A stretch of DNA of 64,000 nucleotides, taken from the NCBI GenBank assembly GCA_905178155.1, contig CAJINV010000018.1, forward strand, positions 1,034,609 through 1,098,608, given 5' to 3'. The position numbers and the translations under genes are program-made. This document shows, piece after piece, positions 25,239-64,000 of the stretch. Source of the DNA: Amoebophrya sp. A120. Taxonomy: Eukaryota; Protista; Dinoflagellata. The notes under the pieces are model-generated. The model made no database searches. It was not told where the DNA came from and saw only the letters and a program-made list of their open reading frames with translations. How positions within the stretch are numbered: position 1 is the first letter of the stretch; each line of letters opens with the position of its first letter.

Positions 25239-25696
25239 TTGTGCTACCACCTCGTGTAAGTGAAAAACCAAGAATCTGTTGATGTTTTTTCACGAGTTTT
25301 TTCCACATTGTTTTTTCTTCTGCGAGAAAGAAATGCGAGGATATCATGAAGAAACATGATGATGAACAACTTGTGAATCTCAAAACCAACAGTCTTTTGT
25401 GGGAATCTCAAGCAAATGAACGAACGAAAGAATCTGAATGCCCAGGTTCTCCACCAATGTTGACCGAAGAATGTAGAACACGTAGATAGCCGCGCATTCA
25501 GATTCTTTCGTTCGTTCATTTGCTTGAGATTCCCACAAAAGACTGTTGGTTTTGAGATTCACAAGTTGTTCATCATCATGTTTCTTCATGATATCCTCGC
25601 ATTTCTTTCTCGCAGAAGAAAAAACAATGTGGAAAAAACTCGTGAAAAAACATCAACAGATTCTTGGTTTTTCACTTACACGAGGTGGTAGCACAA
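25239..25696. repeat. Perfect long inverted repeat: 203-bp arms (25239-25441 and 25494-25696) with a 52-bp loop
   Basis: The arms read as exact reverse complements by eye (ttgtgctaccacctcgtgtaag...gaatctgaatgc / gcattcagattc...cttacacgaggtggtagcacaa). Confidence 0.9.
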
Positions 25697-28766: not shown

Positions 28767-29046
28767 TATCCTGTGTAAAAACGTCCCCACACCATAGTTG
28801 TCATGCAAATCTGCATGCTTAAAATGTTTGCCATGCGGAGCCCCATGAGAAGCATTTTCTAATGGTGTTTTGAAATTTGTCATGCTCCAATCAGCATGAG
28901 AGACTAGATCTGTAATGCTGCTGAACTAGCTCAAACAGCACTACACTACGCGTCCAGATTTGTCATGCGAAACAAGCAAAGTTGGCCGAGTTGTCTAGCA
29001 GATTTTCCATCTTGACTCTGGTGTGGGTACGTTTTTACTCAGGATA
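28767..29046. mobile_element. Introner family B
   Basis: Family B TIRs; direct repeat gcgtt. Confidence 0.85.
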
Positions 29047-29074: not shown

Positions 29075-29682
29075 TATGCATTGCAAATATCCCTGGATGT
29101 CTGGGAGGATGGAACTTGTGATGCGTCCTGTGGGTCACACAAAACTCTGTGTTGCGTGATCACCAGAAGTTGTCCTTTTTTGACTAACGTCGTATCGTAT
29201 CGCTTTGACATTTGACTCCTGTCAGGGTGGCGTTAGAACAGACTTAGCCTCTGCCAATACCGTGGCGCTAGAACAGATTTAGCCTCTGCCAATACCGTGG
29301 CGTTAGAACAGATTTAGCCTCTGCCAATACCCCTAGGTGGACACCCGTTCCACGTCCTACAGGTACCACCCGACCGCATCCGCCGAACCGCTTGCGATTG
29401 CTTACGCGTGAGTACGGCCAGTGGGCGCTAGATGTGGCTGACCTGATTTACCATCCAAGCCCGCGAGCAAGGTGGAGCTCCAGTGTTGCCTTGTTGGGTT
29501 ATTCTTACAAACTTTGCACGTCTTACAAACTAACATGAGCGGGAGTTTCTCATGCAGGATAGGCATGATAGAGATTTTGCAGAATCTGTCATGCTAGGTC
29601 TTGCATGCCAGCCTCACGGGGCATGGGAAATATGCATGACAAGTCTGCAATCTTCCAGACCCAGACATTTTTGCATTTGATA
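29075..29682. mobile_element. Family A introner containing a 5'-truncated non-LTR retroelement
   Basis: Family A ends; direct repeat cttgt; empty site in the paralog at 15738-15742. Confidence 0.85.
29189..29530 (-). mobile_element. 5'-truncated (or SINE-like) copy of the introner-nested LINE, 3' end only
   Basis: Homologous to 52130-52400; three 35-bp tandem repeats at 29227-29331; candidate TSD actaac at 29183-29188 and 29529-29534. Confidence 0.85.
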
Positions 29683-37297: not shown

Positions 37298-37665
37298 TGT
37301 GAAGATGCGAACAAACTAACCAACGACGAGGTAGAACCCACTACGAGTAAAAACAACACCTAGTTGAGGTGGTACAAATATGCATGAGAGATTATTTGTG
37401 TGTGTGCCTTGACTGGCATCAAGGGCCCTGGGGTTCATTGGAAGAGTAAAGGTCGATGGTACTGCGTGCCCAGGCAAAACTGGGGCACTCGGGAACCTTC
37501 ACTATTCTTGCCGTGACGTTCGTGCCCGTCTTAGCCTGTTTCAGGTTCAGTAGTCATCTTACTCTAGTAGAATTGAATTAGTGACGATCGTGCCCGTTTA
37601 GGTGTGCTTTGGATCTTTGGAGTGGATCAAGGTTCTTATCGTTGGTTGATGATTTATGTGTCATA
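37298..37665 (-). repeat. 3' LTR (368 bp)
   Basis: Direct repeat of 43987-44350; by eye it differs by one 4-bp indel and one substitution. Confidence 0.92.
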
Positions 37666-37924
37666 GTCCCCCTCACTCCAAATCCAAAGTCAAAAAATAA
37701 AATCTGTATTGCAGGTTCTTTGTTTATAGTCTTTGCGAGACTTGCGAAAAATAAATGCAGGCGTAAATGGAAGCGAATAAATTTGGTGCATAATAAAACT
37801 CTCTTCGATAGTCATCAGCAGTCCCCCTTGCGCCGAATTTCTTCGCGTTCGTTCGTTCGTTCGTTGGTGTCCAGTTAGGGTTGCTGGCGGTCTGTGGTGT
37901 TTTTCATACTCGGAACGTTTTCGG

Positions 37925-40900
37925 TTAATCCAACTCGATTATGTCGTTTAGTTCGAGAAATGCACGAAACTCGATAGGAGGACAAGTCTTAGTCAAACCG
38001 TTTGACTTGTTAATCTTGGTCGAGTGATAAACGCACTTGATAAGTTGTTTCTCTTGCAAATCGCGCATCTGCATGCCACGGATGTCGATATGTTTCAAAG
38101 CGCTTTTGGTGCCGTTTTGGTTTTCAGTATACGAAATTGCGCTGGAGTTGTCACATCCAAGTTGAATAGGCAGTAAAAGGCTGTGTGATGCAAAGAACTT
38201 TTTCCAAAACGGGCGCAAAGATTCAAGACAATAGTGAAAACGTAAAACCATTTTCGCGGCTTCGCTCATGCCATAGAGCTCAGCTTCAGAAACGCTAGAA
38301 CTAACGCTGTTTTGACTTGCGCAACGCCATGCGATGGCATTTCCGTTCAGACAGATCACTACGCCGGAATTAGACTTTCTATCTCCGAAACTAGCCCAGT
38401 CGGAGTCGCTCCACGCGGTGAGGATAAGACGATCTCCAAACTTTTCACTTCGGTTTTTGTATCGGAGACCTCGGCGGGTCCGTAAGTAGCGCACGATGCG
38501 CTTGAGTGCCAAAATGCACTCGGGAGTAGCTTTCACGCGGGCGCACATCTTTAAAGCTACGACTATGTCCATCCTGGTTTGACACAAATACTGTAAGGAG
38601 CCAGTTAGTTCTTGCTTGGTTTTGACTAATTCAGGCACTTCAGGCGCAGAGACATCAGGAGGCGCATCCATTGGCGTGGAAGTGTTGCGACCTGTGTCAC
38701 CGCCAAAGCGATCAAGAATTTTCTGCACGTATTTGTCTTGGTTCAAGACCATGTCGCCGGTCTTTTTGTTTTCGCGGGCTTCGATGCCAAGGACATCGTA
38801 GACGAGGTGCGTACCTTCGTCGCGAACCTCTTCGGGTTGTAACTTTAGCGCGGGCCTAAGTTCTTCGTGGTACTTCAAAACTTCTTCCTTGTCACCGAAA
38901 AACCAAAAATTATCTACAAATACTAACAACAAAACACCGGCACGAGTCCAGAGAGTGGCCTCGATGGGGTTGCGCTTCCATTCTTGTTTGACAAGAACGG
39001 CATCGCGGTGGTCTTCCCAGGCGCGGGAACTAAGGCGCAGGCCATTCATGGCGTATTCTACCACACCAAGGCGGTAGCCTAGCTCGTTTTGCAATCGCTG
39101 ATCGAGATCGATCACGACCGGAACTGGGTACTTTGCTTGCAAAAAGGCTGAAGTAGCGTCGGAAGGGAATGCAAACATCCTAGGTGACTGAACTTTCATA
39201 CAAAGCAACATACGCAAAATACTTAAATCAGGCACAGTAGCATACTTCTGGTTCCCAGACATTTTGTCCAGAAAGCCTAAGCATACGATCCGGGCCTTAC
39301 GTTTGCCGCAGCGCTTTACACTAAGCAACATTTTGCAGGGTACTGCTCTGCTGCCGCTGCGTTTGAACCGTTCGACTTCTTCAGGTGTAGCAGGCCTGAA
39401 TACGTGAGAATGTGCTTTGACTTCTTTAGAAATGGCTTCTTTCCAAGCGGGCTCTGTAGTGTCAAAACCAGACTTGTGATCAGGGACAGCGATAGCTTTG
39501 TAGCAAACTTCACCAGGCTCCCAGTCAGCACAAATGAGGGGCGCAAGCATGGCTGCAAGCGTATTGTCGTTAATGTCGTTGATGTTGAGCTGTCGGCATC
39601 GTTCTGCGATGTCAGAAGCGACTTTGTGCTTTTGTGCTTCTTTCAAATGCGAATACTCGGGCTGAGCATCGATTAACGCGCGCACTGTGAGTAGCGTTTT
39701 CTCACGTTGTTCGTTGCGTTTTATCCAAGCGCCACGCACCGGCGCTGTTTCAGTTGTCGCGATCAACTGGCGTACGCGCTGCACCTCTTCAGATTTGAGT
39801 TTGTCGAAAACGCCCTGATAGTAGTCCTTGGTAAGACGGAACTTTTTCTCTAGTTCGATGGGTGCAACATCAAGTGAGACAGCCGGGCCACCGTTGCCAG
39901 GCGGCGGGAGCGTGTCAGGTTCACGAGATGACGAGCTTGCGCTGCTACTTGATGCGGCGGGGGCATCGGTGCTCGATTTTGGGTCGGCTTTGATGCTGTC
40001 AGCTGCATCGAGGGTTTTTGGTGCGACCTTCGCATTACCATCCGGAACTATTTTGATGGTTGTCTCTTCGTCGAGAAATTCGCCCTGGGGCGTGTCCGGA
40101 TGGCTATCAGGGACGTTGTGCGTTTTGTAGAGGCTTTTGAGTAACATGGGTGGAAAAGTCATAGCAGTGGCCGTCAGGTGCCTACGTACGTGAGACGCAT
40201 GCGAACGGCGATACCTGCCATCATGATCCACAACGAAAGTGACTGAGTTGTTGTTCACTTGGCGATGGATTAAGGTGCAGGGACCTAACCATGCTTCTTT
40301 GTCCTTGTCGAAAATTTCTACCAATTCACCAACTTTGCACTCGTCGGATTCATGATAAAAATTGCGCTGAAGTTCCCTCAGCTTCCGCGTCTCATCTACA
40401 AGCTGTCTGTCGTGCTTCAGCTCTTCGACCAGAGCACGGGCCCTACAACGGATTTTGTAATCGGACTCAGGACTTTGCTCGTTGACTAAAACTGCTTGCT
40501 GCTCTGTCAAATCTTCTACAAAATTAGGCTCGAGCTTAAACGGATTTATGACCCACTGCACCTGCGCAGGCGCAAGCCCGTCAAGCGCAGCGGTGGGCGT
40601 CATGTTAACCGCGTTTGTTGCTTGTTGTACCAGGCGCGGGATGATAGAACTCTTTTGGCCATAAACGTAATAAAGACGATGCAAAACAGCACGCAAAAGA
40701 CGATGGCGGCGCTCGCAAGTTCCATTCACCCAAGAAGCCTTAGGCGTCAGGAAAAGCTGAATGCCATACAGCTGGCACCATTCGCGCACTTTTATGTTGT
40801 CAAACTCCTTGCCTTGGTCGCAAAGAATGTTCTTGCCCATCATGCCAACAGTTTTCAAGTACTCTAAAAAATCAGCAGTGTCCTGCATCTTGACTGCTCG

Positions 40901-43867
40901 TTTGAAAGTTGTGGTGGTGCTGGCGCGGGAATGGATGTTGATCCCATGTAGCACGCTAAACTCCTTACCTAACGGAAAAAACGTATCTAAGGCGCACCAG
41001 TCGGACAAAGAATTGGCTTCAACTCCTCCGACTTTATGGTGGGGAAAGGCATGGGTCTTAAGGCGCGTCAAGTTGTGCTTGCAGAAGTGAATAACCATAC
41101 TTCTGGAGCGCTGGGAGTTGTCAAGCGTTCGGACAATTTCCCACAACTTTTGGAAAGTAGGCATAAAAAGGCAAGCGCCAAGCTGGCATATCTTTTCATA
41201 ACTAATTTGCTCGAAAGCCGGGGCCTCGGTCGAATCTGTTCGCCTGAACTTCTTCGCCGGGCGCGTTCGCTTTGGTTGGTCCTGGTCCTGGTCGGCCTTT
41301 TTGCGCTTTTTGTTCTTGGCCTTTTTCTTCTTTTTGGCCTTGGGCTGCTCAGAGCCAAGATGATCCGAAGTAGGTAGCTCAGAGCGGTCGGCATTTTCAG
41401 AATCGCTTGAGGCGCTGCGGGTTGCATCCTGGCCACGATCTTCCTGTTGCGCGCTTGAAGATGTGGGGTCCGAAGATACAGCAGGCTCAGGCTCATGCGA
41501 TTGGTCCTCTGGTGGAACCTCTGGCGCGGGGAAAGAATAGGCACAAGATGCAAGCCACCTGACATCGTCGTCTTTGATTTCAAATGTCCGATGCTGGTGG
41601 TGACTCGGGCCATCAAGCACTACTACTCTTTCATCGAGATACGCTGACAAAATGCGAAGTTTTTCTTTGATCTCGTCATTGATGATGGGCGCCAGTAGTG
41701 CAAGTCGTTTTTGACGGTTGTGAACGACTTCTGCGATTATCTCGTTTGTGCTGAGATTTTTGCAATCGATTTCGAAAAACTGAAGACGCAAAGAGCTATC
41801 GAAACCAATCAAAGAATTAAAGTAATCATGGGTGGCGCACCACAAGTCCTGCATGAGTTCCTCGCTGCAGGTTACAAACGCCGTCTGGATCGGTTCCTTG
41901 TGGTTGATACGCACCGGGAGCTTGATCTGGGTGCATCCTTCCACGAGCTGGATCGCGTAGGATAAGAACTGCATCTTGTCCAAGGACATCGGGATACCGG
42001 CTCTGCGCAAAAGCGGATAACTCAGCAACACCCTGTTGCCGAGGCTAGGGACGTGGGCAACGTTCTGGAGCTTGATCGGCGGTGAGGTTTCCAACCAGAT
42101 AGAACCCGTGGTAGTACTGGTGGTCGGTCCGTTTGCCGTGCTAAACGACATTGCCGGCGCTTTCACGAGTTCATGCAGAACCCGCACCGGTCCCGCCATG
42201 TGCTTGCTCGCACAAGAATCCAGCATCAAGAACATCTCCACCGTGTTTGCTGTCGCGGGAGTCGCAAACGCACTGTGGGGGTGGTCGGGGCAGGAGATTT
42301 CGACAGCCACGGCACAGAAAAATCCGCCCTGCTGGTTGTAGTTCGGGTTCGCCGGTTGGTGGACCATCTGTTGTTGCAGTTGCTGCGGGGGGTACGGATT
42401 TTGTTGTTGTTGGTGCTGGGCACCGTACTGGTTGTAGTTCCCCTGCTGCTGCTGCTGCTGGTGGTATCCACCATGCTGCTGGTGGTGTCCACCGCTGTTG
42501 TGGTCGCCGGATGCTGCATACGAGTTGTACTGCTTCCCCGGTGCCCCAGTTTTGCCGCCGTCGGTATTCTGCTTGGTACGGCACTCCGATTCCCAGTGGC
42601 CGGCGCGGCTGCAGTAATCGCACCAGGCGTCCGGGTTGTACGGCTTCCGGGGTTTACCACCCTTGCCGCCCTTCTTACCGCCCTTGCCACTACCCTTCTT
42701 GCCATGACGACCGCCCTTGTGCTTGCGGCCGCCCTTCGGGTCGTGGAAGGCAGGGAAGGCGACATCAGGTTTCTTCTTCTTCCCGAAAAGCTTCTCCGCT
42801 TTGCCAATCGCAGCCGCCAGCTGCGTCGCGTTTCTCGGTTTGTCCTGGACGATGATGCCCCTGACGTTCTTTTGCGCGTTCCGTTCGGCGTAGCGGACGA
42901 CTTCCGAGAACGGCAGTTTGTCCTCAGGCAATTCAGCAAGAGCTTCGCAGAACTTCTTATACCACTCCTGTGGGTTTTGGTTCTGGTCCTGCTTGCAATC
43001 TTCCAGTTTCTCCATACCTGCATCGGGGTCTTGCAGTTCGTTCCGGAAGATCTTGATGATGCGCCGGAGGCGCTTCGAACTGTTATGCGCCTTGCGGACT
43101 GTCCTCCGCTTCTTCGCCGCTAAGTACTGTCGCAGGGTAGTAGTATGCTGGATTTTTGATTCAATCCCTTTCAGGATACGGCTCGGCTTGTACTTCTCCT
43201 GCGCGAGCGACAAGTACTCGGTGAACGGTAACGAGTCATCTTGATAGAGCGGGAGTTGCGACAAGACCATCTTCTTCTCGTCTTTTTCGTTCGACGATTT
43301 CTTTCGCTTTTTCGGTTTCTCGTCCTCCTCGGAACTCGCAGAACCGCTTGAGGAATCGGAAGAAGAGTTTTCGTCGCAGCTGCCACCACTGGAATCCGAA
43401 GAAGACAGAATGTCGGAATCGGAATCCTTCCGCTTCGGTTTCTTCTGTTTCTTCTTTTTCGTACTGGTCTTCGTGGCTGGTTTCTGCAACTGCTTCTTCG
43501 CATCCGCGTCGCGCTGTTGTTCTTCCTTCGCGACGTCCTCGAGCTGCTTCCGGAGGTCAGCAACGACAGTGCCGCCCTTGTCGTCTTTCAAGTCGCCCAG
43601 CAGTTTTCCCATCTGCGACAACTTCGCCACAACGCTAGGCGCAGTTTGCAGCGTCAGAGTGGTGTCGGCGGTAGAAGAAGTGTTTTGCTTTTTCTTCTTT
43701 TTCTTCTTGTCTGGGTTCGGCGTGATGGTTCCGTCATCACCGGCTGTTTGCTGTTCGCCCTCAGGCTCGCCAGAAGTTGCTGTTGCTGCTGCTTTCTCCT
43801 TCGCAGCCTTTTCCTTCGCAGTCTTCTCTTTCTTGTTTTGCTTCTGCGCTGCAGTCAGCTCGCCCAT
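37925..43867 (-). CDS. Copia Gag-Pol polyprotein (zinc knuckle, protease, integrase, RT, RNase H)
   Basis: CDYCSRAGHWESEC (CCHC); LMLDSCASKHM (protease); CALDTF..ILCDQGKEF..NGTCERRH (DDE integrase upstream of RT, the copia order); DATSAFLQA and LLVFVDN (RT); WSDSDWA, SVSEAELYG, CDNSSAI, KHIDIR (RNase H). Confidence 0.95.
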   Translation of the reverse strand: MGELTAAQKQNKKEKTAKEKAAKEKAAATATSGEPEGEQQTAGDDGTITPNPDKKKKKKKQNTSSTADTTLTLQTAPSVVAKLSQMGKLLGDLKDDKGGTVVADLRKQLEDVAKEEQQRDADAKKQLQKPATKTSTKKKKQKKPKRKDSDSDILSSSDSSGGSCDENSSSDSSSGSASSEEDEKPKKRKKSSNEKDEKKMVLSQLPLYQDDSLPFTEYLSLAQEKYKPSRILKGIESKIQHTTTLRQYLAAKKRRTVRKAHNSSKRLRRIIKIFRNELQDPDAGMEKLEDCKQDQNQNPQEWYKKFCEALAELPEDKLPFSEVVRYAERNAQKNVRGIIVQDKPRNATQLAAAIGKAEKLFGKKKKPDVAFPAFHDPKGGRKHKGGRHGKKGSGKGGKKGGKGGKPRKPYNPDAWCDYCSRAGHWESECRTKQNTDGGKTGAPGKQYNSYAASGDHNSGGHHQQHGGYHQQQQQQGNYNQYGAQHQQQQNPYPPQQLQQQMVHQPANPNYNQQGGFFCAVAVEISCPDHPHSAFATPATANTVEMFLMLDSCASKHMAGPVRVLHELVKAPAMSFSTANGPTTSTTTGSIWLETSPPIKLQNVAHVPSLGNRVLLSYPLLRRAGIPMSLDKMQFLSYAIQLVEGCTQIKLPVRINHKEPIQTAFVTCSEELMQDLWCATHDYFNSLIGFDSSLRLQFFEIDCKNLSTNEIIAEVVHNRQKRLALLAPIINDEIKEKLRILSAYLDERVVVLDGPSHHQHRTFEIKDDDVRWLASCAYSFPAPEVPPEDQSHEPEPAVSSDPTSSSAQQEDRGQDATRSASSDSENADRSELPTSDHLGSEQPKAKKKKKAKNKKRKKADQDQDQPKRTRPAKKFRRTDSTEAPAFEQISYEKICQLGACLFMPTFQKLWEIVRTLDNSQRSRSMVIHFCKHNLTRLKTHAFPHHKVGGVEANSLSDWCALDTFFPLGKEFSVLHGINIHSRASTTTTFKRAVKMQDTADFLEYLKTVGMMGKNILCDQGKEFDNIKVREWCQLYGIQLFLTPKASWVNGTCERRHRLLRAVLHRLYYVYGQKSSIIPRLVQQATNAVNMTPTAALDGLAPAQVQWVINPFKLEPNFVEDLTEQQAVLVNEQSPESDYKIRCRARALVEELKHDRQLVDETRKLRELQRNFYHESDECKVGELVEIFDKDKEAWLGPCTLIHRQVNNNSVTFVVDHDGRYRRSHASHVRRHLTATAMTFPPMLLKSLYKTHNVPDSHPDTPQGEFLDEETTIKIVPDGNAKVAPKTLDAADSIKADPKSSTDAPAASSSSASSSSREPDTLPPPGNGGPAVSLDVAPIELEKKFRLTKDYYQGVFDKLKSEEVQRVRQLIATTETAPVRGAWIKRNEQREKTLLTVRALIDAQPEYSHLKEAQKHKVASDIAERCRQLNINDINDNTLAAMLAPLICADWEPGEVCYKAIAVPDHKSGFDTTEPAWKEAISKEVKAHSHVFRPATPEEVERFKRSGSRAVPCKMLLSVKRCGKRKARIVCLGFLDKMSGNQKYATVPDLSILRMLLCMKVQSPRMFAFPSDATSAFLQAKYPVPVVIDLDQRLQNELGYRLGVVEYAMNGLRLSSRAWEDHRDAVLVKQEWKRNPIEATLWTRAGVLLLVFVDNFWFFGDKEEVLKYHEELRPALKLQPEEVRDEGTHLVYDVLGIEARENKKTGDMVLNQDKYVQKILDRFGGDTGRNTSTPMDAPPDVSAPEVPELVKTKQELTGSLQYLCQTRMDIVVALKMCARVKATPECILALKRIVRYLRTRRGLRYKNRSEKFGDRLILTAWSDSDWASFGDRKSNSGVVICLNGNAIAWRCASQNSVSSSVSEAELYGMSEAAKMVLRFHYCLESLRPFWKKFFASHSLLLPIQLGCDNSSAISYTENQNGTKSALKHIDIRGMQMRDLQEKQLIKCVYHSTKINKSNGLTKTCPPIEFRAFLELNDIIELD

Positions 43868-43971
43868 GGTTTGTCGTTGGGGTATTTATGATTCTAAATT
43901 TGTAATGCTGATAATTAGGCGCAAAGTGTAATTTTAAATGTTCGCAATCAGAAGTAAATCTTAGTGGTAAT

Positions 43972-43986
43972 TTGGGCTCATAACTC
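43972..43986 (-). other. Putative primer-binding site of the half-tRNA (initiator Met anticodon region) type
   Basis: gagttatgagcccaa lies immediately after the 5' LTR and resembles the GGTTATGGGCCCAG PBS of Drosophila copia. Confidence 0.6.
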
Positions 43987-44350
43987 TGTGAAGATGCGAA
44001 CTAACCAACGACGAGGTCGAACCCACTACGAGTAAAAACAACACCTAGTTGAGGTGGTACAAATATGCATGAGAGATTATTTGTGTGTGTGCCTTGACTG
44101 GCATCAAGGGCCCTGGGGTTCATTGGAAGAGTAAAGGTCGATGGTACTGCGTGCCCAGGCAAAACTGGGGCACTCGGGAACCTTCACTATTCTTGCCGTG
44201 ACGTTCGTGCCCGTCTTAGCCTGTTTCAGGTTCAGTAGTCATCTTACTCTAGTAGAATTGAATTAGTGACGATCGTGCCCGTTTAGGTGTGCTTTGGATC
44301 TTTGGAGTGGATCAAGGTTCTTATCGTTGGTTGATGATTTATGTGTCATA
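43987..44350 (-). repeat. 5' LTR (364 bp)
   Basis: Direct repeat of 37298-37665. Confidence 0.92.
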
Positions 44351-46898: not shown

Positions 46899-49800
46899 TT
46901 ACACAGCCACCACGACATTCTCTCTTTCCAGCAAACTTTTTTTCAACAACGCCCCCTGTGGCCCGACTTCTCCCACGGCCGGGGAGTTGACCGAATAGGA
47001 GCAAGACCCAGAGTTTGGCGAGATCAAGAGGTTCATCGTAGCCGCGGGGCTAGTGAACTCTTCTTCTCCACAGTCCGGGTTCCCGAACGACCCGATAACC
47101 CCATCCTCGTAGGAAAACAGGCTCGGGAACCGCAGCAACCCGCCGTAAATCAGCTGTCCGAGGATGAGCGAGCCGAACCCGGCCAGCTTATGGCATTTTT
47201 CCCAAGCGTTTCTTGCAAGTGTCGCTTTTCTGACATGATTTGTCATGCGGAATTATCATCATCCTTCATATCATCAAGCTACTTCGCATGACAAGTTCTT
47301 CACCGGCTGCATAGCATCAGAATCCGAACCAAATCTGTAAGTAATGCAAGACGCGTAAGTTCTTCCTCCCACTTCCTTTCGCTTTTGCATTTCCTTGCAG
47401 TTGCATCGATGAACAAAGGCCATGTGCTATATAGCAATCATTGTAAAAACGTTTGAGAACGCCATAGAGCTGCAGGTAGGAGTAGGGCGTCCAGGGTTCG
47501 CCAAAATCACTTGTCGGGTCGACGCAGTAGAAGTAGAAGATCCCGGTCAGCCACACCACCATCGTGCGCCAGGCGTCCAGCATGGTCCGGTGGACGGCGG
47601 ACAGGTAGCGGGTGATGCTCATGCCGCAGAAGTTGTAGAACGAGCAAGTGAGCAGGTAGGTCACGGTGAGGACGAAGGTATGGAAGGTGAGAAAAGTGAT
47701 GTTGATGATCGTTGTTGCGAAATCAAGTTAATAAATCGTCGCGATGACATGAAGCATAAATTCAGTCTAGTACGACGCTGGGATTTTTATATGAGCTACA
47801 TACAGATGCACGATGGGGAATTGCGTTTTCTTCGTTCGTGCTTCACATTCACTTCACTCACGAATAAAATTATAAAAGTTTCAATTGGATAAATCAACGT
47901 CGTGCTATTCCGGATCATCGCCTGGGGTAAGTCGTGTTTTCGTACCGCGATAGAGCAGGACAAGGACCACAACTTCTGATGCGAGAACCACGATCACTGA
48001 CTGGTTTTCTCATGCGAGGAATCAATGTGATTCATTCAGACCACAAACTACTGGTAAAAAAAAAATGCAAAACCAAAAACTCTCTACAATACGAAAGTGT
48101 CCAGTAGGTTTTCTTGGGAGTTCCCAAAATCCGCTCCGGGTAGGTTGTACAGGATTGGGAAGCCGATGAAAGTCAAAATTCCGAACCCCCAGAGCCCTTC
48201 GATTCCCACCACGATTGCGGGCGGCAGCTGATATCCAAGAAAAAAACTGTGTCACTGTAACTTTCTTTGGCGGACAGCATTACAGATTTGCTCTAAATGA
48301 CAGAGAAAACCTGTCATGCGTGGCTTCTAAGCGAAAGCACACACGAAAAGAGGACTTCATGGGTGTCTGGCATGACAGGTGTAACTCTGTTGCATCTTCT
48401 GCATCACAGATTTACACTTACACAGTTTTTTCCTTGCATAGCTGGTTGCAGTCCTTCAAAATAAACTCCTCCGTGACCACCTGGCAGGCCGAGATGAACT
48501 GGCCGAAAAGCACCAACGCCATGCCGAAAAGCCGTATCAAATATAAAAATGTCTGGGTCTGGAAGATTGCAACTTGTCATGCTAAATCTGCACCATGCAA
48601 AAATCTGTGTTGCATGATTACCAAAAGTCGCCCAATTTTGACCAAGTCGGGAGGTAGTTTCTCATGCAGGATAGGCATTAGAAAGCTCTCGCAGAATCTG
48701 TCATGCTAGCTCCGTCCGGCATTCCAGACCTCATGGGTCATGGAAAAGCAGCATGACAAGTCGCGCATTCTTCCAGACCCCGACATTTTTACATTTGATA
48801 AGCCGCGAATTGTTCTGGTTTGTTTCCTCTTCCACAGTGGACTGGGAGCTGCTGCCCGAAGGGGTGGCGGTTGCCGCCCACATGTTTGTGTCAAAAGTAA
48901 AAATGTCTGGGTCTGGGAACTTGTGATGCTGGGTGGCGTCTCATGATGAGGCTAAAAATGCTGGCTCAGCATGACAAGTTTCTGAGCTCCTAGGTGTTGC
49001 CTATTCTGCATGACAAACTGTGCTCCTGCATCACAGAAAAGCGGAGCTCTTGGGCAACGTGCATGACAGATTTAAGAGTCATGCCAGACAAGCATGACAA
49101 ACATGAATTCTTCCAGACCCAGACATTTTTACAGTTGATAGTTTGCCGTCCCGACCATGAGAATCCCGCACACGCAAAGTCCTATCAAATGCAAACATGT
49201 CTGGGTCTGGAAGAATGCAAACTTCTCATGCATATTTTCCATGCCCCACGAGGTGTGGAATGCAGGACCCAGCATAACAGGTTCTGCGACGTCCCTATCA
49301 TGCCTATCCTGCATGACAAACTGCCCCTAAACTTGTTCAAAAGTGGACAGCGTTTGGTACTCATGCAACACAAATTTTTGTACGATCCAGACTTAGCATG
49401 ACAAGTTCGCGTCCTCCCAGACACAGACCTATTTGCAATGCATAAGTCCGATACCCGCCCAATTGTAGGCAAACAGGTGGCGTTTCAGGCAAAGGACGGA
49501 AAGGATACCGGAAAAGACGACCATACCTGAAGATGGGATCATTATTTTCGACGTTCTGCATGTGGATGGATTAGAGGAAAGGAACAATGAAGCAGGAGGT
49601 GCCTAATTATGTCAAAGAAAGAGCTCCTTTTGTGAAAATGCATCGAATTCGAATGTGCAGTCGTGGGGTAAAGTAAAATACTGCATTTTTCTCTGTCAAA
49701 GAAAAACATCGAACTACTTCCTCGCAGCATCTGCCACACGCTCGCCGAGATGTGCAGCAGCCCGATGAAGCTTAGTGTGGATGAGGTCAAGTCACAGCAG

Positions 49801-50628: not shown

Positions 50629-51289
50629 TTTCTTGACTGATAATTTTCAAATCGAATTCGCAGTTTTAATATATTGCCTTACCTGTCAGCTCTTTTCCCT
50701 ACTGACGTATCTCAAAAATACAAAAATCACGTAGATGCTGTGTCTTCACTTCGCAAGAATAGTTCCTGCTTAGTACTAGAACCTCGATTGGTACTAAACG
50801 TGAGTACCACAGCCTCTCTCGTACTACTACGCTCCACCTCGGCTCAGTACACTTGCGGCATGTACTTGAAAAAGGACATTGAACAGACTGCGCTGAAAAC
50901 TTGCGGTAGTTGTGCTGACATCGTCGACATCAAGCCACAAAAGTTTCTCCAGCTTCATGAGTTGATGTGCAAAGAACCAACGATTCCCCCGACCTCAGGC
51001 TCAGGGATATAATTTGCATGTGTTTCGTATTGCGTCCGAGATGAGCGCTATTGTATCCAGAAGATGTTCCAACAAGCAATGGTCCATGCATGATCTTCTC
51101 GGTGTTTATTGTTCCTCCATCCCGCGTGGTCGGAGTAGCAAGTCGTGTAAGACCGATGTTCGTGAATACGGGAAAGAAGTACAACAACCAAATAAAAGCA
51201 CGATCCACCTATCCGGCGCGGGAGAGATGAACTGGCACTACGAAGCAAGGTCGCTAGTACGATATCACGCATGCCAAACTGCCATCCCC

Positions 51290-54200
51290 TCACGCGTTCT
51301 CCAAGGCAGAAATCAAGTATTTTATTTCCACCAAACTCAACCCCGTACCGTGCATGCCCGCGCGTGGCTGGTAAACCGTCACTGTGTTCTCCGCAAGTTC
51401 CAGGTTGCCTTTGTTGTCGTCCAAAAACAGAACTCGCTCGGCGTCTGGAAACGCCGTGGTCGTCGTGCCAAGAGCACCCAGCACTTGCTGCGGAGGTGCT
51501 GGGTGCTGTTGCGAATCATTTTCCAGATTAGCACCGCTGCTTTCCATCGCTACATGCTCTGCCCCTGCTGCGCTCATGCTGTCGAATAGGTTCACGATCT
51601 GCTCCGCCTTGTAGAATCCTTTTGGCCTGTTATTACAGTGAAAAATGCCCCCACCCCCGAACTACTTGGGAGCATTTGTATTGCAAACCTTTCCAAATGA
51701 CACATTCGCCCTCCTGCATCTATCAGCATCACAGGTTTCCAATCGTGAAGAGAGAAAATTTGTATTGCAAAAGACCCCAGCAAGAGCGGCACTTGTCATG
51801 CAAGCGACGCGATACACGCCTAGACTCTGCATAGCATCAGAAAGATTCATACTCCTTTCATGCATGACAAAAAGCTTTCATTTGGAGACTTCGCATCACA
51901 AATTTTTGCAATTTGAGGGGTGGGGGGCACTTTTCTCTGCAATACCTGTGCAACGTGTCCGAGGCGAGAATCCTGGCCTTGCTGTCGTACTGTTTCAGGT
52001 CATATGCATTGCAACTATGTCTGGCCCTGGAAGACAGTAACTTGTGATGCTAAATCTGCATCATGCTGAAATCTGTGTTGCATAAGTGCCAAAAGCTTTC
52101 CACTTTCGACCAAGATAGTAGTAGTAGTAGTACCATTTAACTCCTGGCGGGTGGGCGTTAGAACAGATTTAGCCTCTGCCAATACCTGGGCGTTAGAACA
52201 GATTTAGCCTCTGCCGATGCCCCTAGGTGGAGACGCGGTCCACTTCCTAACTACCACCCGGCTGCACCTGCAAAACCGCTATCGATTGCTTACGCATGGC
52301 TACAGCCAGTGGGCGCTATGTGTGGCTGACCTGCCTTACCATCCAAGCCCGCGAGCAAGGTGGAGTTCCAGTATTGCCTTGATGGGTTAGTCTTACAAAC
52401 TTGCTCGAAGAACTACGCGCGTGGCCGGTTGCGCGCTAAAAAGTATACAGGGGGTCTAATGATCAGACACGGTGATCCTATCACGATGGCGGGCGACCCA
52501 ACGGCGTGTCCCTTTCAGACACGTTTTGCCGATCTTCTTCCCGCACCCTTTTATATGCGTTTCCATAGAAACGGCCCGCGGAGCTCCGCATTCGCAGAGC
52601 CGCCATCGCGCCCGCCCCGGGGGGACCCCTTGGGGAAGGGGGGCGCTGCATTAGCGCAGTCTTTTAAATTAGCAACCCTGGCACCACTTCTTTTATATAG
52701 TTTCTCTTTCTTCTCTTTCTTTTTCTTTTTGCTTCCTAGCGCGTCAGTGCATACGGTTCGCCGGTGCAAGGAGAGGAAAAGCAGCGCCGTGCCTTTACGG
52801 CTGGCGGGAACGAAATGATTAGCATCGCCGCACCCCTCCGGGCTGGCGGGAACGTGTCGAAACGAGGTCCATACGCAGTCTCATCATTTTTTATCGCTCT
52901 TTTCTGTTCCGTTTTGTGTCTACGCTCTTCCCTCTGCACCCGCCAGAACACCCCGCATTTGCCTTTTTCGCCTTGAGCCCCGGTCTGTGTCTTCTTTGCT
53001 CCTTTATTTCATTCACGTATGAGGCCTCTTATTGCCTCTACTTTGCTATCCATTCGTGAATCTCATCCAAAAAAGAATAAACGCACTGCAGTCACTATTT
53101 TCTCTCTCTTCCTTCATTTTCCATCGCTGTTTTCTTTTTCTAGGACTCTATACATTTGGGCTAGTTCTCGCTGCATAGGAGTTTCATACTGCATCCGCCT
53201 CCTCCTCCTCTTCTCCTCCTGCATCCTCTTCTCCTTCTCCCGCTGTTCTTTCTCTTTCTGCATCAATGTCGTGGGGTCATCTGCCATTAATTTCTCGACT
53301 GTGGGGAAGTTAGAGGCCTCCGTCGTTTGCTTCTTTTTTTCGTCTTCGTTTCCACCGTTTTGGTTCGCTTTCTCGTCTTTTTTCTCCACTTTTCTCCGTT
53401 TTTGCTGCTCTTGGTCCGCCTCTTTTTCATCTTGACCTTCCTCCGCCCGCTCCTTATTAATCGCGTCCCTTTTCTCATCCTCCCCCCACGCCACCAGATT
53501 CCGAAAAAATGCTCGCGCTGCCTCTTCTGGACCCTGATCTATGTAGTATCCCTGTCCCATCGCCCCTCTTTTGAACACATATCCTCTCCGAGTGCCTTCA
53601 TATTCTTGCGCCCCGTAGAAGCTTTTTTTTTCTTCCTCTTCTCCGTCTTCGCTGATCCCTTCCCCTTGGTCTCCTTCCCTCCTTCCCCTTTCTTTTTCGT
53701 TTGACTTTCTACCATCGTCTTCTTTATTCGCCTCCTCTACCTCCTGCAACAGTTTCGTCGCTTTTTGGATTATTCTGAATGCCCCCTGCGCCATCTCGTC
53801 ACCAGTTTCCTCTGCTTTCTTCTTCTCTTTCTCGATTAGTCGCAGTATAGTTTCAGAAAGTGTCTCTCCTTCCCTTCTTTCTTCCCCTTTTTCTTCTTGC
53901 TTTCTTTCTACATTTGCCCGGCTACTTTTACTTTGACTGCTTGCAGCGCCACTCTCCTTTCCTGTCCTCTCTGTGTTGGTGCTCTTTTTCGTTTCTTTCT
54001 TCTTTTGAGATTTCGCGCTGTCTTTCTCTCCTAAGCCTCGCTTCATTTCATCACCGTCCCCAGCTTCTACGTTTTCTTTCTTTTTGTCCCCTTCTGTCTC
54101 CTTTTCTTTCATTTTCCTATGTATGTATACCTGCCTTTCTATTTTTGACATTTCCGGCCATTCCCACACCGGTTTCAGTGGAATCCGCTTCGTTCCGAAG

Positions 54201-57200
54201 TCGAACCGCACCCAGTCCGTATACTCATTGTCGTGATTTAGCACGTTCGCCACCCTGAGCGGTATCTCTTCTTTGGTCCCTCCGTCTATATTTCTTGTCG
54301 CTTCCGCTCTGCTTGCAGTTCCTTTTCCCCATCTCGTTACTATAGTTAGGCCCGGGTCCTCACTTTCGGCTTTTTCTATTGTCTCCTGTAGCTCCAAGCC
54401 TATTCCATGCCCTTTTCGTAGTATCCCCCGCGTCTTCTCCCTTAACTCGTGGTAGTCTAGCAGTATAATCTGCACCGCTCCGCCTTCTTTCTTTCTCCTC
54501 TCTGTGACTATTTCTATGGCCCTCATTGCGTTGTTGCAGTATGCCGCGAAAGTCTTTTCCTCTGTTCTTATTTCAGTCTTTAAGTGCTCCACTTTTGTCT
54601 CTATCGTCCTCAGGTGTGTCTCCGTCCTTTCACTTGCCTCTTGTACTGTGACTGTTGTACTTCTTTCCTGTCCGGCATGCTTCACCCATATTTTTTGCAT
54701 CCTATCGCTCTGCCCTTTCTTCCCGAGGCCTCCTTTTCTGTTCCTGCTGACTACCAAACCCGCGCTCCCCCTGTGTGTATACTGATCCTCTACCCTTGGG
54801 GGACCCCGCGCGCTTCTCTCCTTCACGATCCCCACTGCACGCAGGTCGCTTCCCGGCGATAGCCTAACTGTCGCGCCATCCTTCAGCGCCCGCAGCAGTG
54901 CTATGTCGGCTTCTTTTCTTTTCAGCATTTTTCGTTCTTCTGTTTTCGGGATGCCCGCCTTTGCTTCGCCTACTACCTTTACTGGCGTCGTTGCTAATGG
55001 TGCGAACAAGGCCGGGTCTGTTAGGTAGTTTGCCTGCGCCGTTGCGCGTAGCGTTTTCAGTCCCATCGTGTACGGGTCAGCTAGTCCGAGTAAATTCATC
55101 CCGAACACTACCCTATAGAATGTCTCCGCCGTTGTTTCTGTTCTGGCCATCAGCTCTTCCACTGCCTCCGTTGTCATTCCCAGTGTTTCAGCTATTGTCA
55201 GCGCCATTTCGCCCATCAATTCCGCCCAGTCTCCTAGGTCGAAATATAAACGCATCACTGGCAGGAAGTATATCATTGCCGACACAAAGAAAACCCGCAC
55301 TACCCACGTGAGTTCCTCGCCGTTAAGCCTTCCCCTTTTCGCCATTACTTGGCACGCCAAGTGTTGCCCTATCCCTATACTTTGTCTGACCTGCCCCCTC
55401 AGGGCCTTGGCTTGTTCCGTTTTGTCTTTCGGCACTATTTTGATCCCCAGAATCTTCAGAAATGTCTTTTCCTCGAACAGAATCCCGAAAGGCTGGAAAG
55501 CCTGTCGGATCACGTTTACCTTCAGCGGGTCTTCTATCGACGTTGCAACTTCGCACTTCTGTGGTGCCAAAAATTGTCCTTCAGTTGCGTAGATTTCCTC
55601 ATATGCCCAGCTTGCTGCTTTGAGCGCGCGCGCTACTATTTTTATATCTTCGATAAAGAACTTTATTACAACTGTGCCGTCGTCCACGTATTGCACGCAT
55701 AGGGTCCATCTTCTTTTCCCGTCTCCGGGGAGTGTTCCGGAGTAGTATCGAGTCTCCGCCCTTTTTCCTTTCTCATTCACCTTTCTTTTTCCCTGCTCTG
55801 TCGTTACCTTCTCTCCCTTTCTGTATCCCGTGACTACTGGCGGGGCTTCTTTAAGGTAGATCTCGTCGACTTCTTCTCACTCTTACATTGTAATCGGGGA
55901 AAGTTGTATCGATATCGCCCCCCTTGTAAAGCCTTTTAATCCTCGTTCTCATCTTGGCTTCTGCTGCTTTTAGCCTTTCCTCTTCCGCCCTACCGTCTTC
56001 ATTGAAGATTTCTTCGAGGAACTCCGCGATTATTTCTACTCCTGGGAGGAAAATCAGGGTCCCCGCTAACATCGTTTCTACTGCGCCCTGAATGAGTTCG
56101 CGATGTCTTAGCACGTGTCCGTAACAATCCCCGTCTCTGATCCATAAGTCCTTCGTCCACGCTGTTACTATTATCAACTTTATGAAACACGGGTGCAGTT
56201 TTGCAGCTCTGTATGCTGCTACTGCCCTCGGTAGCCCTATATTGTTGAAATAGTTTGACGCATCTAGCCCAAAGACTACCGCTTCCTTTCTTCTTTTCTC
56301 TTGCCCATTGCCTCCCTCCTTTCTTTCGTCCGGTGTTTCCGCTTCGCCCCTCTCTTCCCCCTCGTGACATGTCTCCAGGACCTGCAGCGCTGTGGCTTGG
56401 CAGCTTGCTCCTGGTTTTGATGCTGATCCGCATCGGGTAAATGCGTCATTTTTGTCGGCTACCCGCGCCATTTCATATACCACTACGCTCAGCAACACCC
56501 TCACTATCGCTGTCCCCTGTATCACGGTCCGGATTTTTTCTATTGCCGTTGTTGCTGCTGTTTGTTTTTTCAACAGCTCCACCTGCACCGCATTGAGGTG
56601 CTCCTCCAGGAGCTTCGGCCCCTTTCCCTCGTTTCGTTTCATCTCATACTCCTCCACTTCTTTTAAAAACCTATTAAACGCCTCTGCTAACACTTGGTAT
56701 TGTTCTGGTGTGAGGGCGCGGTATATTCCTTGTCTGAGTCCATCCATGCCTGCTGCTTCACTGTTTAACTTTGAGACGTGTGCTTGTAATTGTGGCCCCG
56801 TAAATCGTATGCTCTTTACTTCTTTACATGCTTGCGTGAGCTGTCGTAGCGCTTTTTCGAGCTCTTTTCCGTCATATGTGTGCTTTTTGTCATTTTGCTT
56901 TCTCACGAATTCACACTTGAGGAGGTGGCTACTCGCTATCCTTTCTGTCGCTGCTTCCACCCCTTGCACTAGTGTGCCGCCTACTGTTACTTCCTTCGCC
57001 TCCCCCATCGGCATTCCTCTGCCTACCCCGCACACAGCTTCTTTTACCTTTCTAGCCGTCTCATAAACCGCTTTCTCGTTTTTCTCTTCCTTTTTTGGCT
57101 TTTCTGCGAATGACGCCAGCCAGGCCTTTTCCATTTCGTCCTGTTTCAACTTCTGCTCCTGTCGTCGTGCGGTTTCCTCGTCCTTCTCCTCTTTCTCTTG

Positions 57201-60200
57201 CGTTTTTCGCTCATCTTTTTTCTTCTTCTGCCAATATTCGTAATTCGCGTCCTGTTTCGGTACTTCTTTGAGTTTCAGCACGCCTGCCTCGCCTAGCTTC
57301 TCCATCAGCCATTTTTGCATCCCTAGCATGCTCCTGCGATTTTCTGGCACCGTCCCTGCTTTTTCCATCACCTGCTGTAGTCTTTCTAACGTCACCGACT
57401 TTCTCGGCCATTTCACCAGCTGCGTGACAGGGTTTTTCTTCTGAAGTCTTTCTTTCCCTTTTATGATCTCAATTCGCTGCCTTGAGCTTTCAACTGTCGG
57501 CACCATCAGCGTATAGCGCGCATTAAGTTTCCACCTCTTTTGCTCTTTTTCTTTCTTCTGTTTTTGTTCTTCTGTGGGCTTCTCGGGCTCTGGGATCCAC
57601 ACTATGTCTGCTAGCAGAGCTACGTGGTCCGACTCCTCTTCTTTATTCTCCCCCTCTACCTCCTTATCTTCTCCGTTTTCCTCTTTTACTGTCCGCGGTA
57701 TTTGAATTCTTTCACAGGTCTTCGCCACAACTTTTGCCCTTTTTTCCGCTATCGCTACTATATCGATCGTTGTCGGATTTTCCGGGTTTCGGAAGCATGT
57801 CGGGCCTCCTGTTGTAAGTGTTTCAGCGTGTTTGTTGAAAATCTTCTGTATCGGTTCTATTATTTCGCTGAAGTAAACTTTTTGCACTCCTGTCCGCTCC
57901 CTCTCAAATTTCACCTTTCCCCTTTCATCAATTTGATACTGACAGTTTAGGTCTCCCGCCAGTATGGCTATTCCTGCTTCTTCTATCATCTTTTCGAGTT
58001 CTGAAGTCATTTCTTGCATTTGTTTCCTTATGTGTGCTACCTCCTCGCTGTCCTTCGGTGTGTCCTTTGCCGGTCTCCGATAGAACGCGACCACTAGCAT
58101 TCCTCTTTCGTCCTCTGCTGCGATCATCCATAAAAGTATATCCTCCTTGTCTGTCACATCTCTCTGGAAGAATGCGCCCCCCCTTTCCCTTCGAAAAATC
58201 TCCTTTCTCATTGTCTTTTTTGGTAGCTTCTTCGTTTCGTCTGTGTATACGATTCCTACCGCTCCCGAGTTCATCTCTGACGCCACGCCTTTCATGTCTG
58301 TGGCGGCTGCGAAGTATATTCCTGGCCTCCCCTCTAGTCCTAATCTCTTCATCTCCTCTTCTACATGTTTGAACGCTGCCTGATCTTGTGTCAGCGCGGC
58401 GGTCTTCAACTCGGCGCAGCTCGCCCCTGTAATTTTTGGCGCTATGTCTCTGTAAGCTTTCACTAGACTAATCGCATTCAGACGCTTAACCCCGTTAATA
58501 TTCCAGAACATATGTCGCTCTCTTCTTAAATCATCTTGCCCGTCATTTCTTTCTTTTTTCTCTTCTTCCCCCATTTCTTCTTGCATTTCTCCCCTCCATA
58601 TCCCGTCTGGCTCCTCTTCATTATCATTGCGCTCTTCTTTTTCCTCCTCCATCTCACCTTCCCTCTGTTCTGTGTCCGTCCTCCTTGTGCTGTCTTCTCT
58701 TCCTTCCGGGGTTTCCCGCGGTAGCAGGCTTTCCTGCCGTTTTCTATCATCATCTCCCTCGTTCTCGTCCATCTTGTCTTTGTTTTCTTACTGTTTTTGA
58801 CTATCGGGACCGACTGCTCATTCTATTGCTACGCTAGCTGTACACTATCCAAACTTGAGCCAAAATGGCTACGGATTTCTCATGCAGGACAGGCATGACA
58901 GAGGCCTCGCAGAGTTTGTCATGCTAGGCCCCGCATTTCAGACCTCATGGGTCATGGAAAATCTGCATGACAAGTTGCATTCTTCCAGACCCAGACATAG
59001 TTGCATTTGATAGGTCAAAGTGCGTGTTCAACGGGGTCAGAAAAGGAGAGTTGGAGTGGGTGGACGCGCTGAAGGCAGATTCGTAATCCGACTGCGTTTT
59101 GGACAGCAGCTGCACGGGATAGTTGTGCTTGCTCCGGGGGCCATTGGTAACATTACTACCTCCATGCGTCATCGCGTTGTTCGGCGAGCTGCCGGACGCG
59201 CCGCTTTTGACGCTGCCGAGGGGGGAGGGCGGAGGCCGCTTATTTTTGTTCCCCGCTGTATGCGCAGCTCCCGGCGTTGTCGCGTGTTCGTCTGGAAGCA
59301 GGAGATCCATCGGGTTGTTGGTGTAGTGCTTTCCGCCAGATGAACCATTTCCCGTTGTAGTAACCACCGCTCCTGCCATCGGCGTGTATATCACACAGAA
59401 AAAAGCTGGCAGGGCATATCTGTAATGCCAAAATAAATACACAGAAAAACCTGCATTGCGTATCCGAAACAGCATTCTATGGGGCCACCTATGACAATTT
59501 TTTTTGTGTATTTATTTTTGCATTACAAATATGCCCTGCCAGCTTTTTTCTCTGGGATAGTGTAAAACGGCCGCGCATCGGCCTGTTCCGGTTGCTTTTC
59601 TGTGCAAAAGTGTCGTACTCGTAGTAATCGTAGTACTGCATTACAAATTTGCTTCTTAAGTCAAATCTGCATTACAAATTTGATTTCTCATGCTGAGAAA
59701 ATTTGTCATGCGATTTATACTAGTACGATAGTTTTGCAAAGCATAGTTGCATCAGATCGGGTGCCGCTGGCGCTGCTGCTGTGTCTATCAGGAGCATCTG
59801 GGGCTGGATGGCCAGCGGGGCAGACACGCTCATGTTCAGTAGGTTATTGTTGTTCGCCGTCGTGCTCATGCTTTGAAACAGCATGTCCTGATCGTCATCC
59901 GCATAATTGGTTGGTGGTGCAGCAATGTTGTGATCCAGCACCGGCGCAGGTCCTCCAGGTGGAGGACGATCCGCAGTTACCATACCACTACCCGTGGTGG
60001 ACATCGTTGCATCCCCGTCAGCATCAAACAGCGGGTGGTTGCTGGGTGTGCGGACTTCTTCCCTGTGATTCTCGCGCTGCTGCACGGGAGTTGCAACAAG
60101 CCTGGTGCTTGGAGGAACGGCAGCCGATGTTGCAAACGAACCTGTACTTGATGTTGCTGCTGCCCCACCAGATGAAGTGGATCCGTTCTCGAAAAACTTC

Positions 60201-63789: not shown

Positions 63790-63904
63790 TATCAAATGCA
63801 AAAATGTCTGGGTCTGGAAGATTCTAAACTTGTCATGCTGTCTTTGGATTCCAAAAACATCTGTATTGCGTGACCAACAACAGGAGTCCAGTTTGTGTTA
63901 CGCG
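63790..63904. mobile_element. Left arm of a family A introner interrupted by a LINE
   Basis: tatcaaatgcaaaaatgtctgggtctggaag TIR; the introner sequence stops abruptly at a (tag)n run. Confidence 0.85.
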
Positions 63905-64000
63905 TAGTAGTAGTAGTAGTAGTAGTAACCATTTAACTCCTGGCGGGTTGGCGTTAGAACAGATTTAGCCTCTGCCAATACCTGGGCGTTAGAACAGATT
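63905..64000 (-). mobile_element. 3' end of a third copy of the introner-nested LINE (runs off the window)
   Basis: (tag)n tail followed by accatttaactcctggcggg and the 35-bp repeat, nearly identical to 52116-52204. Confidence 0.9.

Follow-up and report, generated by a model that had tools for sequence, protein, structure and literature searches.

Evidence for a LINE aimed at one homologous site in the introners of the dinoflagellate Amoebophrya

Main

We describe a long interspersed nuclear element (LINE) of the dinoflagellate Amoebophrya that very probably inserts by targeted, target-primed reverse transcription (TPRT) at one homologous site within a single family of introners, repeated intron-forming elements of its genes. 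The element was examined in a 64,000-nt stretch of Amoebophrya sp. A120 (assembly GCA_905178155.1, contig CAJINV010000018.1, positions 1,034,609 to 1,098,608 of the forward strand), hereafter the window, where one full-length copy enlarges a family A introner to a composite of 7,010 nt (52003-59012). It is a LINE with a single open reading frame (ORF) that encodes an APE endonuclease and a reverse transcriptase (RT). Across the window and a second assembly, 13 of 14 visible 3′ junctions lie at the fixed site. This site is likely a harmless hiding place inside active genes, because the enlarged element is apparently still spliced out. The original prediction for this DNA overlooked two features: a spliced leader (SL) at the 5′ end of the full-length copy, and the sense-only orientation of the LINE within host genes.

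Results

LINE copies share one site in family A introners

The window, eukaryotic DNA, has its genes running in one direction, on the minus strand, and is densely populated by introners bearing terminal inverted repeats (TIRs). The host introners carry TIRs and a short direct repeat, start with TAT followed by As, and belong to a repeated family. In this TAT...AAA signature they agree with the Amoebophrya introner elements of the A120 type, for which PMC7789003 gives a TAT start followed by As, inverted repeats with short direct repeats, and non-canonical borders. Family A has ~17 members in the window, and 12 typical empty copies were aligned.

A scan of the window returned the three predicted LINE copies (52115-58875, 29189-~29530 and 63905-end), all inside family A introners. 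Their 3′ junctions lie at the predicted distances from the TIR end, with left arms of 112 nt for the copy at 52115, 114 nt for that at 29189 and 115 nt for that at 63905, corresponding to alignment columns 122, 122 and 124. As anticipated, no LINE was found in introners of other families; the strict scan of the window counts 30 of these rather than the ~39 proposed, with further motif clusters suggesting more. The composite also retains a TIR at each end and the 6-nt direct repeat AGGTCA (51997-52002 and 59012-59017). No piece of the LINE was found in two long elements at 18784 and 23698. These elements (18784-19327, 544 nt; ~23698-24149, ~450 nt) have family A-like TIRs and interiors that are unrelated or degenerate.

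An independent test used an exact 26-nt pattern from the 3′ untranslated region (UTR), which yielded 12 loci from a metagenome collection (L loci), all in one other assembly and with immediate flanks that differ from those of the window copies. Eleven of the 12 lie in family A. Of the 11 visible 3′ junctions, 10 keep to the same column, give or take ~4 nt, in a left arm of family A; at L006 the 3′ side is cut and the element runs into the family A right arm. The remaining locus, L008, interrupts an introner of another family next to its TIR and leaves the flanking repeat intact. Its nick lies ~12 nt before a degenerate copy of the internal motif described below (one event, noticed after the fact). 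With backgrounds borrowed from the window and applied to the second-assembly loci, P is 1e-4 for 11 of 12 loci in family A if any introner could receive copies, 4e-19 for 10 of 11 junctions at the site within family A, and 2e-8 for junctions confined to the site within the 45-nt motif-free gap. Targeting of family A at one site is borne out by these loci; its exclusivity is not absolute. Two LINE subfamilies, with 3′ ends ~82-87% alike and different tails, have the site in common.

The insertions arose separately

The left arms of the hosts are 44-90% alike and form three subfamilies. The two most similar LINE ends in the window (~98% alike) sit in arms that are 57% alike. Approximately unbiased (AU) tests reject a single clade of the three filled window hosts (p 3e-49) and a clade of 52003 with 63790 (p 5e-8). 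Truncation points and tails vary between copies. Among the nine copies with a visible 5′ junction, target duplications measure 19 nt at L005, 17 nt at L003, 16 nt at L009, 7 nt at L008, 5 nt at L011 and up to 6 nt at 29075 (29183-29188 and 29529-29534), 52003 and L006 have lost ~10-11 nt of target, and no clear duplication is seen at L012. Such differing 5′ truncations, with 5-19-nt duplications or small deletions, indicate separate TPRT insertions, and on the established LINE mechanism the junction pattern suggests that the position of the first nick is fixed and that of the second varies.

It is highly improbable that filled introners were instead multiplied, by transposition or gene conversion, from one or a few insertions. 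Several A2-type hosts (L003, L004, L007 and L011) have the same 8 nt directly before the tail, and the arms of L004 and L011 are 90% alike, as such spread would produce; the AU rejection, the three host subfamilies and the differing truncation points, tails and duplication lengths nonetheless largely refute amplification as the sole explanation, in agreement with the original prediction.

Short re-primed or duplicated pieces at 5′ junctions (L003 1180-1280, L012 350-420 and window 29505-29535) mark places where synthesis jumped between the template of the LINE and the right arm of the introner.

A local cue is favoured over a TIR ruler

The prediction that the site is set by position and not by sequence, the local sequence differing between the three copies, is not supported in that form. 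Alignment shows conservation in several columns ahead of the junction, with a loose consensus there: AAnAG, a T-run and AnG are common to 13 sites. The distance to the TIR is 112-115 nt in 11 of 13 on-target copies; in L011 (100 nt) and L012 (107 nt) it changes and the column does not. From the end of the duplication to the motif downstream of it is 8-9 nt in four L loci and 11 nt at 29075. Targeting of a hairpin apex or loop was discarded, as the 12 empty copies share no single fold state at the junction.

We favour a local cue over a ruler anchored at the TIR. In the ruler variant of targeting, the LINE complex would be tethered to a factor on the left TIR and would insert ~113 nt away whatever the sequence. 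We consider this doubtful. It draws on the constancy of arm length in 11 of 13 copies, among them L009, in which a deletion is offset by an insertion, and on the variation of junction-proximal sequence among the three host subfamilies. It is countered by L011 and L012, which hold the column rather than the distance, by L008, which sits 30 nt from a TIR end, and by the conserved local columns.

TGT.ATGC-like motif arrays occur in nearly all introner families despite their different TIRs. The motifs are often ~31 nt apart and often point inward from the introner ends, with a density of 16.8/kb in introners and 2.3/kb outside. We regard this motif as a candidate site for the binding of a factor that acts in splicing or transposition.

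Selection after insertion could mimic targeting if the LINE landed widely and only sense copies in the motif-free gap kept splicing intact and persisted. The genome is gene-dense, the motif array is possibly needed for splicing (given the densities above), one off-target copy exists, and such a filter could account for the sense-only bias described below. We nevertheless hold it very unlikely. Junctions are confined to ~4 nt of a ~45-nt gap (P 2e-8), gaps exist in other families too, and L008 persists next to the TIR of another family with the flanking repeat intact. A 7-kb Copia element also persists in non-introner DNA. This intact Copia-type long terminal repeat (LTR) retrotransposon (37299-44350), outside any detected introner, has a 1,986-codon frame with protease-like, integrase and RVT_2 matches, and its LTRs are identical over at least 300 nt.

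Filled introners are sense-oriented and apparently spliced

Empty family A copies lie six one way and six the other, and both ways within one minus-strand gene (48087-49602). The LINE is sense to its host gene in 10 of 10 callable on-target copies (3/3 in the window and 7/7 callable L loci), so that orientation is 10:0 in filled against 6:6 in empty introners (Fisher p 0.015). A codon-model strand caller was weak (14/19 correct, in its own training region), and strands were accordingly taken from frames across or abutting the introner; the call at 29075 is based on the exons next to it and on the co-oriented block of genes. Two readings are at hand: the first nick may depend on the template strand of an introner under transcription, or copies in antisense may be purged.

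An RNA check across the composite, proposed with the original prediction, came out in its favour. In the probable RNA runs X3 (record 9) and X4 (record 16), single contigs match 59012-59383 plus 51200-51625 with 0 differences, joining the flanking exons without the 7-kb composite. The 52-nt gap between the matched parts is exactly the length of the intervening exon, and these contigs do not place the splice point exactly within the direct repeat. Contigs of the DNA-like run X1 continue into the introners. In X4 (record 22), a 121-nt contig of depth 2 spans the leader/introner junction with 0 differences, indicating that the sample carries the filled allele. These contigs support splicing of the composite from host RNA, provided that the culture was not a mixture of filled and empty alleles. 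LINE-body contigs in X3 (depth 3-4) are indistinguishable from DNA carry-over. In the raw RNA run X8, only the TIR was matched, at <95%, with nothing on the composite locus.

Taking out the composite together with two neighbouring introners leaves a 286-codon open frame on the minus strand, so restoration of the host frame stands. The proposed HAD-phosphatase identity of the host gene is unconfirmed: the host exon pieces tried had no match in Pfam, NCBIfam or PDB, and the only HAD-like trait is a string that we take to resemble motif IV.

The element is a single-ORF APE-RT LINE

The full-length copy, on the minus strand, consists of a 22-nt leader, an 81-nt UTR, an ORF starting with an ATG at 58772, a frame shift near 55876 and a frame end at 53114. 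In X1, a contig 4 nt shorter at the frameshift has depth 120/164, against 45-52 for unique flanks. These depths indicate that the frameshift is real in the window copy and that ~2-3 other long copies have a single frame of ~1,884 aa. A rise in depth to ~1,950 over 52348-52634 points to tens of 5′-truncated copies. Copy numbers of this kind use summed contig depth and are a rough guide only.

The window protein had no match in Pfam or PDB sequence searches. One of two word-index protein searches for relatives was empty and the other returned P0001 only. Among 1.84 billion representatives, eight protein relatives were found, seven of them named Amoebophrya. Alignment with these relatives shows conservation of the APE motifs WN, E, GDxN, D and DH and, downstream of the endonuclease, of the RT motifs D..NYFN, QG and YVDD. 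Pfam PF03372 scores above its cut-off in the relative P0007 and below it in P0001. A Foldseek search with the predicted fold of the first 978 aa gave human L1 ORF2p as the top match (816 columns, E 6e-9), followed by AP endonucleases. The C-terminal 600 aa yielded a low-confidence model (predicted local distance difference test score, pLDDT, 52) with no significant fold match, and RNase H, a C-terminal feature of the ingi clade, was not seen in this weak model; no CCHC pattern occurs in the C-terminal part of the ORF. As is typical of LINEs, copies of the element carry a simple-repeat tail at the 3′ end, differ in how far the 5′ end is truncated and in how much of the target is duplicated or lost, and have no terminal repeats of their own; the single-ORF layout without ORF1 is as in the RTE and ingi clades. 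Four of the protein relatives (P0002, P0003, P0005 and P0008) represent other divergent single-ORF APE-RT families in Amoebophrya, at 18-41% identity.

The full-length copy begins with a spliced leader

The leader at the 5′ end (58854-58875) matches the published dinoflagellate spliced leader (DinoSL) consensus at 22/22 positions (PMC12014239). The match occurs once in the window and in none of 100 shuffles. It is followed by TTT and no GT donor, which excludes an SL RNA gene at 58854-58875.

Most likely, the leader stems from trans-splicing of the LINE RNA. A rival for the leader alone, a template jump in which the RT switched to an SL RNA or a cellular mRNA at the 5′ end of that RNA, seems unlikely. 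Jumps are visible at other 5′ junctions (29075, L003 and L012), and a jump keeps some probability because a single full-length copy is seen. Opposed to it are the exactness and completeness of the leader, followed by TTT with no GT donor, and another copy in X1 that matches as far as 58805, 33 nt upstream of the ATG, which indicates that the UTR is at least partly the element's own.

Features of the window

The features of the composite and the other filled introners are collected in Table 1. Comparison of 51900-59100 with Rfam families, ribozymes included, gave no match. Elsewhere, 25239-25696 holds a perfect 203-nt inverted repeat with a 52-nt spacer, a 5-nt direct repeat and TGT...ACA ends; it differs from the other introners and has no second copy in the window. 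The introners 15450-15714 and 28767-29046 have identical ends and flanks and adjoin near-identical coding stretches (14410-15251 and 27118-28587), which suggests a recent local segmental duplication.

Table 1 Coordinates of the filled family A introners and of the parts of the full-length LINE
Feature	Positions	Strand	Remarks
Host exon	51945..51996	-	52 nt, downstream of the composite; length fits the gap in two RNA contigs
Direct repeat of host introner	51997..52002		AGGTCA, from the sequence; second copy 59012-59017
Left arm of family A introner	52003..52114		Subfamily A1, with TIR; its end is the putative first-strand nick
LINE 3′ tail	52115..52132	-	(TAC)n on the element strand
LINE 3′ UTR	52133..53113	-	~980 nt; two 35-nt tandem repeats at ~52155-52224
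LINE ORF, C-terminal part	53114..55876	-	YVDD motif, thumb-like region, long charged tail
LINE ORF, N-terminal part	55851..58772	-	ATG at 58772; motifs of the APE endonuclease and, as far as QG, of the RT
LINE 5′ UTR	58773..58853	-	81 nt, 6-codon upstream ORF; too short for an ORF1
Spliced leader	58854..58875	-	Complete 22-nt dinoflagellate spliced leader; 5′ end of the full-length LINE
Right arm of host introner	58876..59012		With TIR; lacks ~10-11 nt at the junction that empty copies have
Second filled family A introner	29075..29682		5′-truncated copy of the second LINE subfamily (29189-~29530)
Third filled family A introner	63790..64000		Subfamily A2; LINE tail from ~63905, element cut by the window end

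Discussion

A model for introner-targeted insertion

Our preferred model is targeted TPRT directed by a local cue. The endonuclease likely nicks the family A site and primes reverse transcription there, with a cue that is local rather than a distance to the TIR. The first nick would fall on the template strand of the host gene, just past the T-run and ~8-11 nt before a TTT(G/C)TCATGC-type motif, and pairing of 1-3 nt between tail and target would prime TPRT. A second nick of variable position would then leave duplications of 5-19 nt or deletions of up to ~11 nt. As its cue, the endonuclease could read a loose sequence or a shape, perhaps aided by a protein on the shared motif array. Spliced by its ends, the introner would leave the host gene functional. 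Presumably without a promoter or an ORF1 of its own, the element would be transcribed by host read-through, and SL trans-splicing would excise and cap its RNA; this would account for the leader that the full-length copy carries. The AG of the leader itself may possibly serve for re-splicing.

A more elaborate scenario, which we put forward tentatively as possible and no better than that, joins these elements into a promoterless LINE that parasitizes introners. It would find its site through introner-marking machinery or the motif array, insert in sense only, be spliced out and be released by the SL as its own mRNA. Its 5′ end would possibly renew itself at the leader AG, its RT would also be a source of SL-tagged retrocopies, and its endonuclease would footprint a factor of the U1-less, non-canonical splicing of Amoebophrya.

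Several points weigh against targeting by a local cue with splicing and leader capping. The 12 test loci come from one exact pattern and one assembly and represent young copies only, and L008 (1/11) is off target, in another introner family and 30 nt from the TIR end. An upstream internal motif lies 33-36 nt away in 12 of 13 copies and 47 nt away in L009, which leaves neither ruler perfect; indels in the arms are undatable, and the deletions in L011 and L012 could postdate insertion. The conserved columns are equally kept in empty copies, so they do not separate sequence reading from tethering. Monophyly of 29075 and 52003 is not rejected (AU p 0.11). Strands of the L loci rest on open frames, with four of the 11 family A loci (L001, L006, L007 and L010) uncallable. 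X3 and X4 come from one sample and are probable RNA only, the 52-nt exon is deduced from gap length, and the junction contig has depth 2. The structure model of the first 978 aa is of low confidence (mean pLDDT 50), and the leader is n=1, seen on the only full-length copy.

Implications

The introner site would constitute a new class of safe haven for site-specific retrotransposons, in which a mobile intron both removes the insert from mRNA and supplies transcription. A non-canonical Amoebophrya intron that is apparently still spliced after growing from ~260 to 7,010 nt argues for splicing defined by the intron ends. For Amoebophrya, PMC7789003 reports no U1 and no known splicing mechanism; filled introners offer natural length mutants for this question. 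In the full-length copy, the leader provides direct evidence, from sequence, that the RT of a LINE reverse-transcribed an SL-capped RNA as far as its 5′ end; for dinoflagellate retrogenes this step has been assumed. Introner families that automated surveys label as non-LTR-derived, or for which they list LINE hits, call for caution, as they may prove to be TIR introners that contain nested LINEs. In its divergent APE domain, the element offers a candidate for a new target specificity.

Comparison with known systems

We found no description of an introner-targeting or DinoSL-capped LINE in the open literature, including passages of PMC7789003, PMC12130899, PMC11282704, PMC12014239 and PMC3942190; most subscription papers and Repbase reports lay outside this scope. 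Site-specific nesting is likewise not described in the accessible parts of PMC12130899 and PMC7789003, where some families are classed as non-LTR-derived introners. In Dataset S2 of PMC12130899, the A120 TIR families 16 and 6 have LINE protein hits and coordinates up to ~7.1 kb, and those of A120 TIR family 2 reach 8.3 kb. These entries fit filled introners, an interpretation that PMC12130899 does not make, and a link of these families to family A is unconfirmed.

Insertion of a LINE into a mobile element has precedent in Tx1L within Tx1D and in Tx1-Mar/SINEU within Mariner-N4; the new part is the spliced-intron target. Tx1L of Xenopus laevis is likewise an APE-type non-LTR element at a specific site of a non-autonomous DNA transposon, a site read as a low-harm niche (PMC1950540, PMC6719617 and PMC4494074). 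The target of the Amoebophrya LINE, unlike that of Tx1L, is an intron-forming element in genes that is removed from RNA, with arms 44-90% alike; the element itself differs in its one ORF, the absence of a detected CCHC pattern, its 5′ spliced leader and its alveolate host. Members of the Tx1 clade have two ORFs and a C-terminal CCHC finger, whereas here a leader and an 81-nt UTR lead directly into the APE-RT ORF. No sequence link to Tx1 was found among the protein relatives. With one ORF, no CCHC, no such link and a spliced-intron target, the element is not to be filed as Tx1.

Tx1-Mar/SINEU in the crocodilian Mariner-N4_AMi resembles the Amoebophrya LINE in occupying one position in one direction of a non-autonomous TIR transposon, with duplications and truncations at the target, and its transcription from the flank has been proposed (PMC4494074). 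It differs in that its target is an old, ordinary transposon not described as a spliced intron in the accessible text, in the absence of trans-splicing and in belonging to the animal Tx1 clade (PMC4494074).

The flanks of the Amoebophrya LINE are introner arms without an Rfam match, and its target is neither an SL RNA nor an rRNA gene, which sets it apart from SLACS, CRE, NeSL, R1 and R2. SLACS, CRE and NeSL are site-specific non-LTR elements in SL RNA genes; together with R2 they have a restriction-like endonuclease, in contrast to the N-terminal APE here. All of these systems share transcribed multicopy targets and a reliance on host transcription; R1 and R2 are also treated in PMC1950540 and PMC6719617.

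SL-tagged dinoflagellate retrogenes provide the closest parallel for the leader, since a genomic copy that starts with a leader is a reverse-transcribed trans-spliced RNA (PMC12014239 and PMC3942190). Unlike in those retrogenes, it is the retrotransposon itself that bears the tag in Amoebophrya, and the leader is full, without a relic. The leader-tagged LINE points to a candidate RT source for SL-tagged retrogenes.

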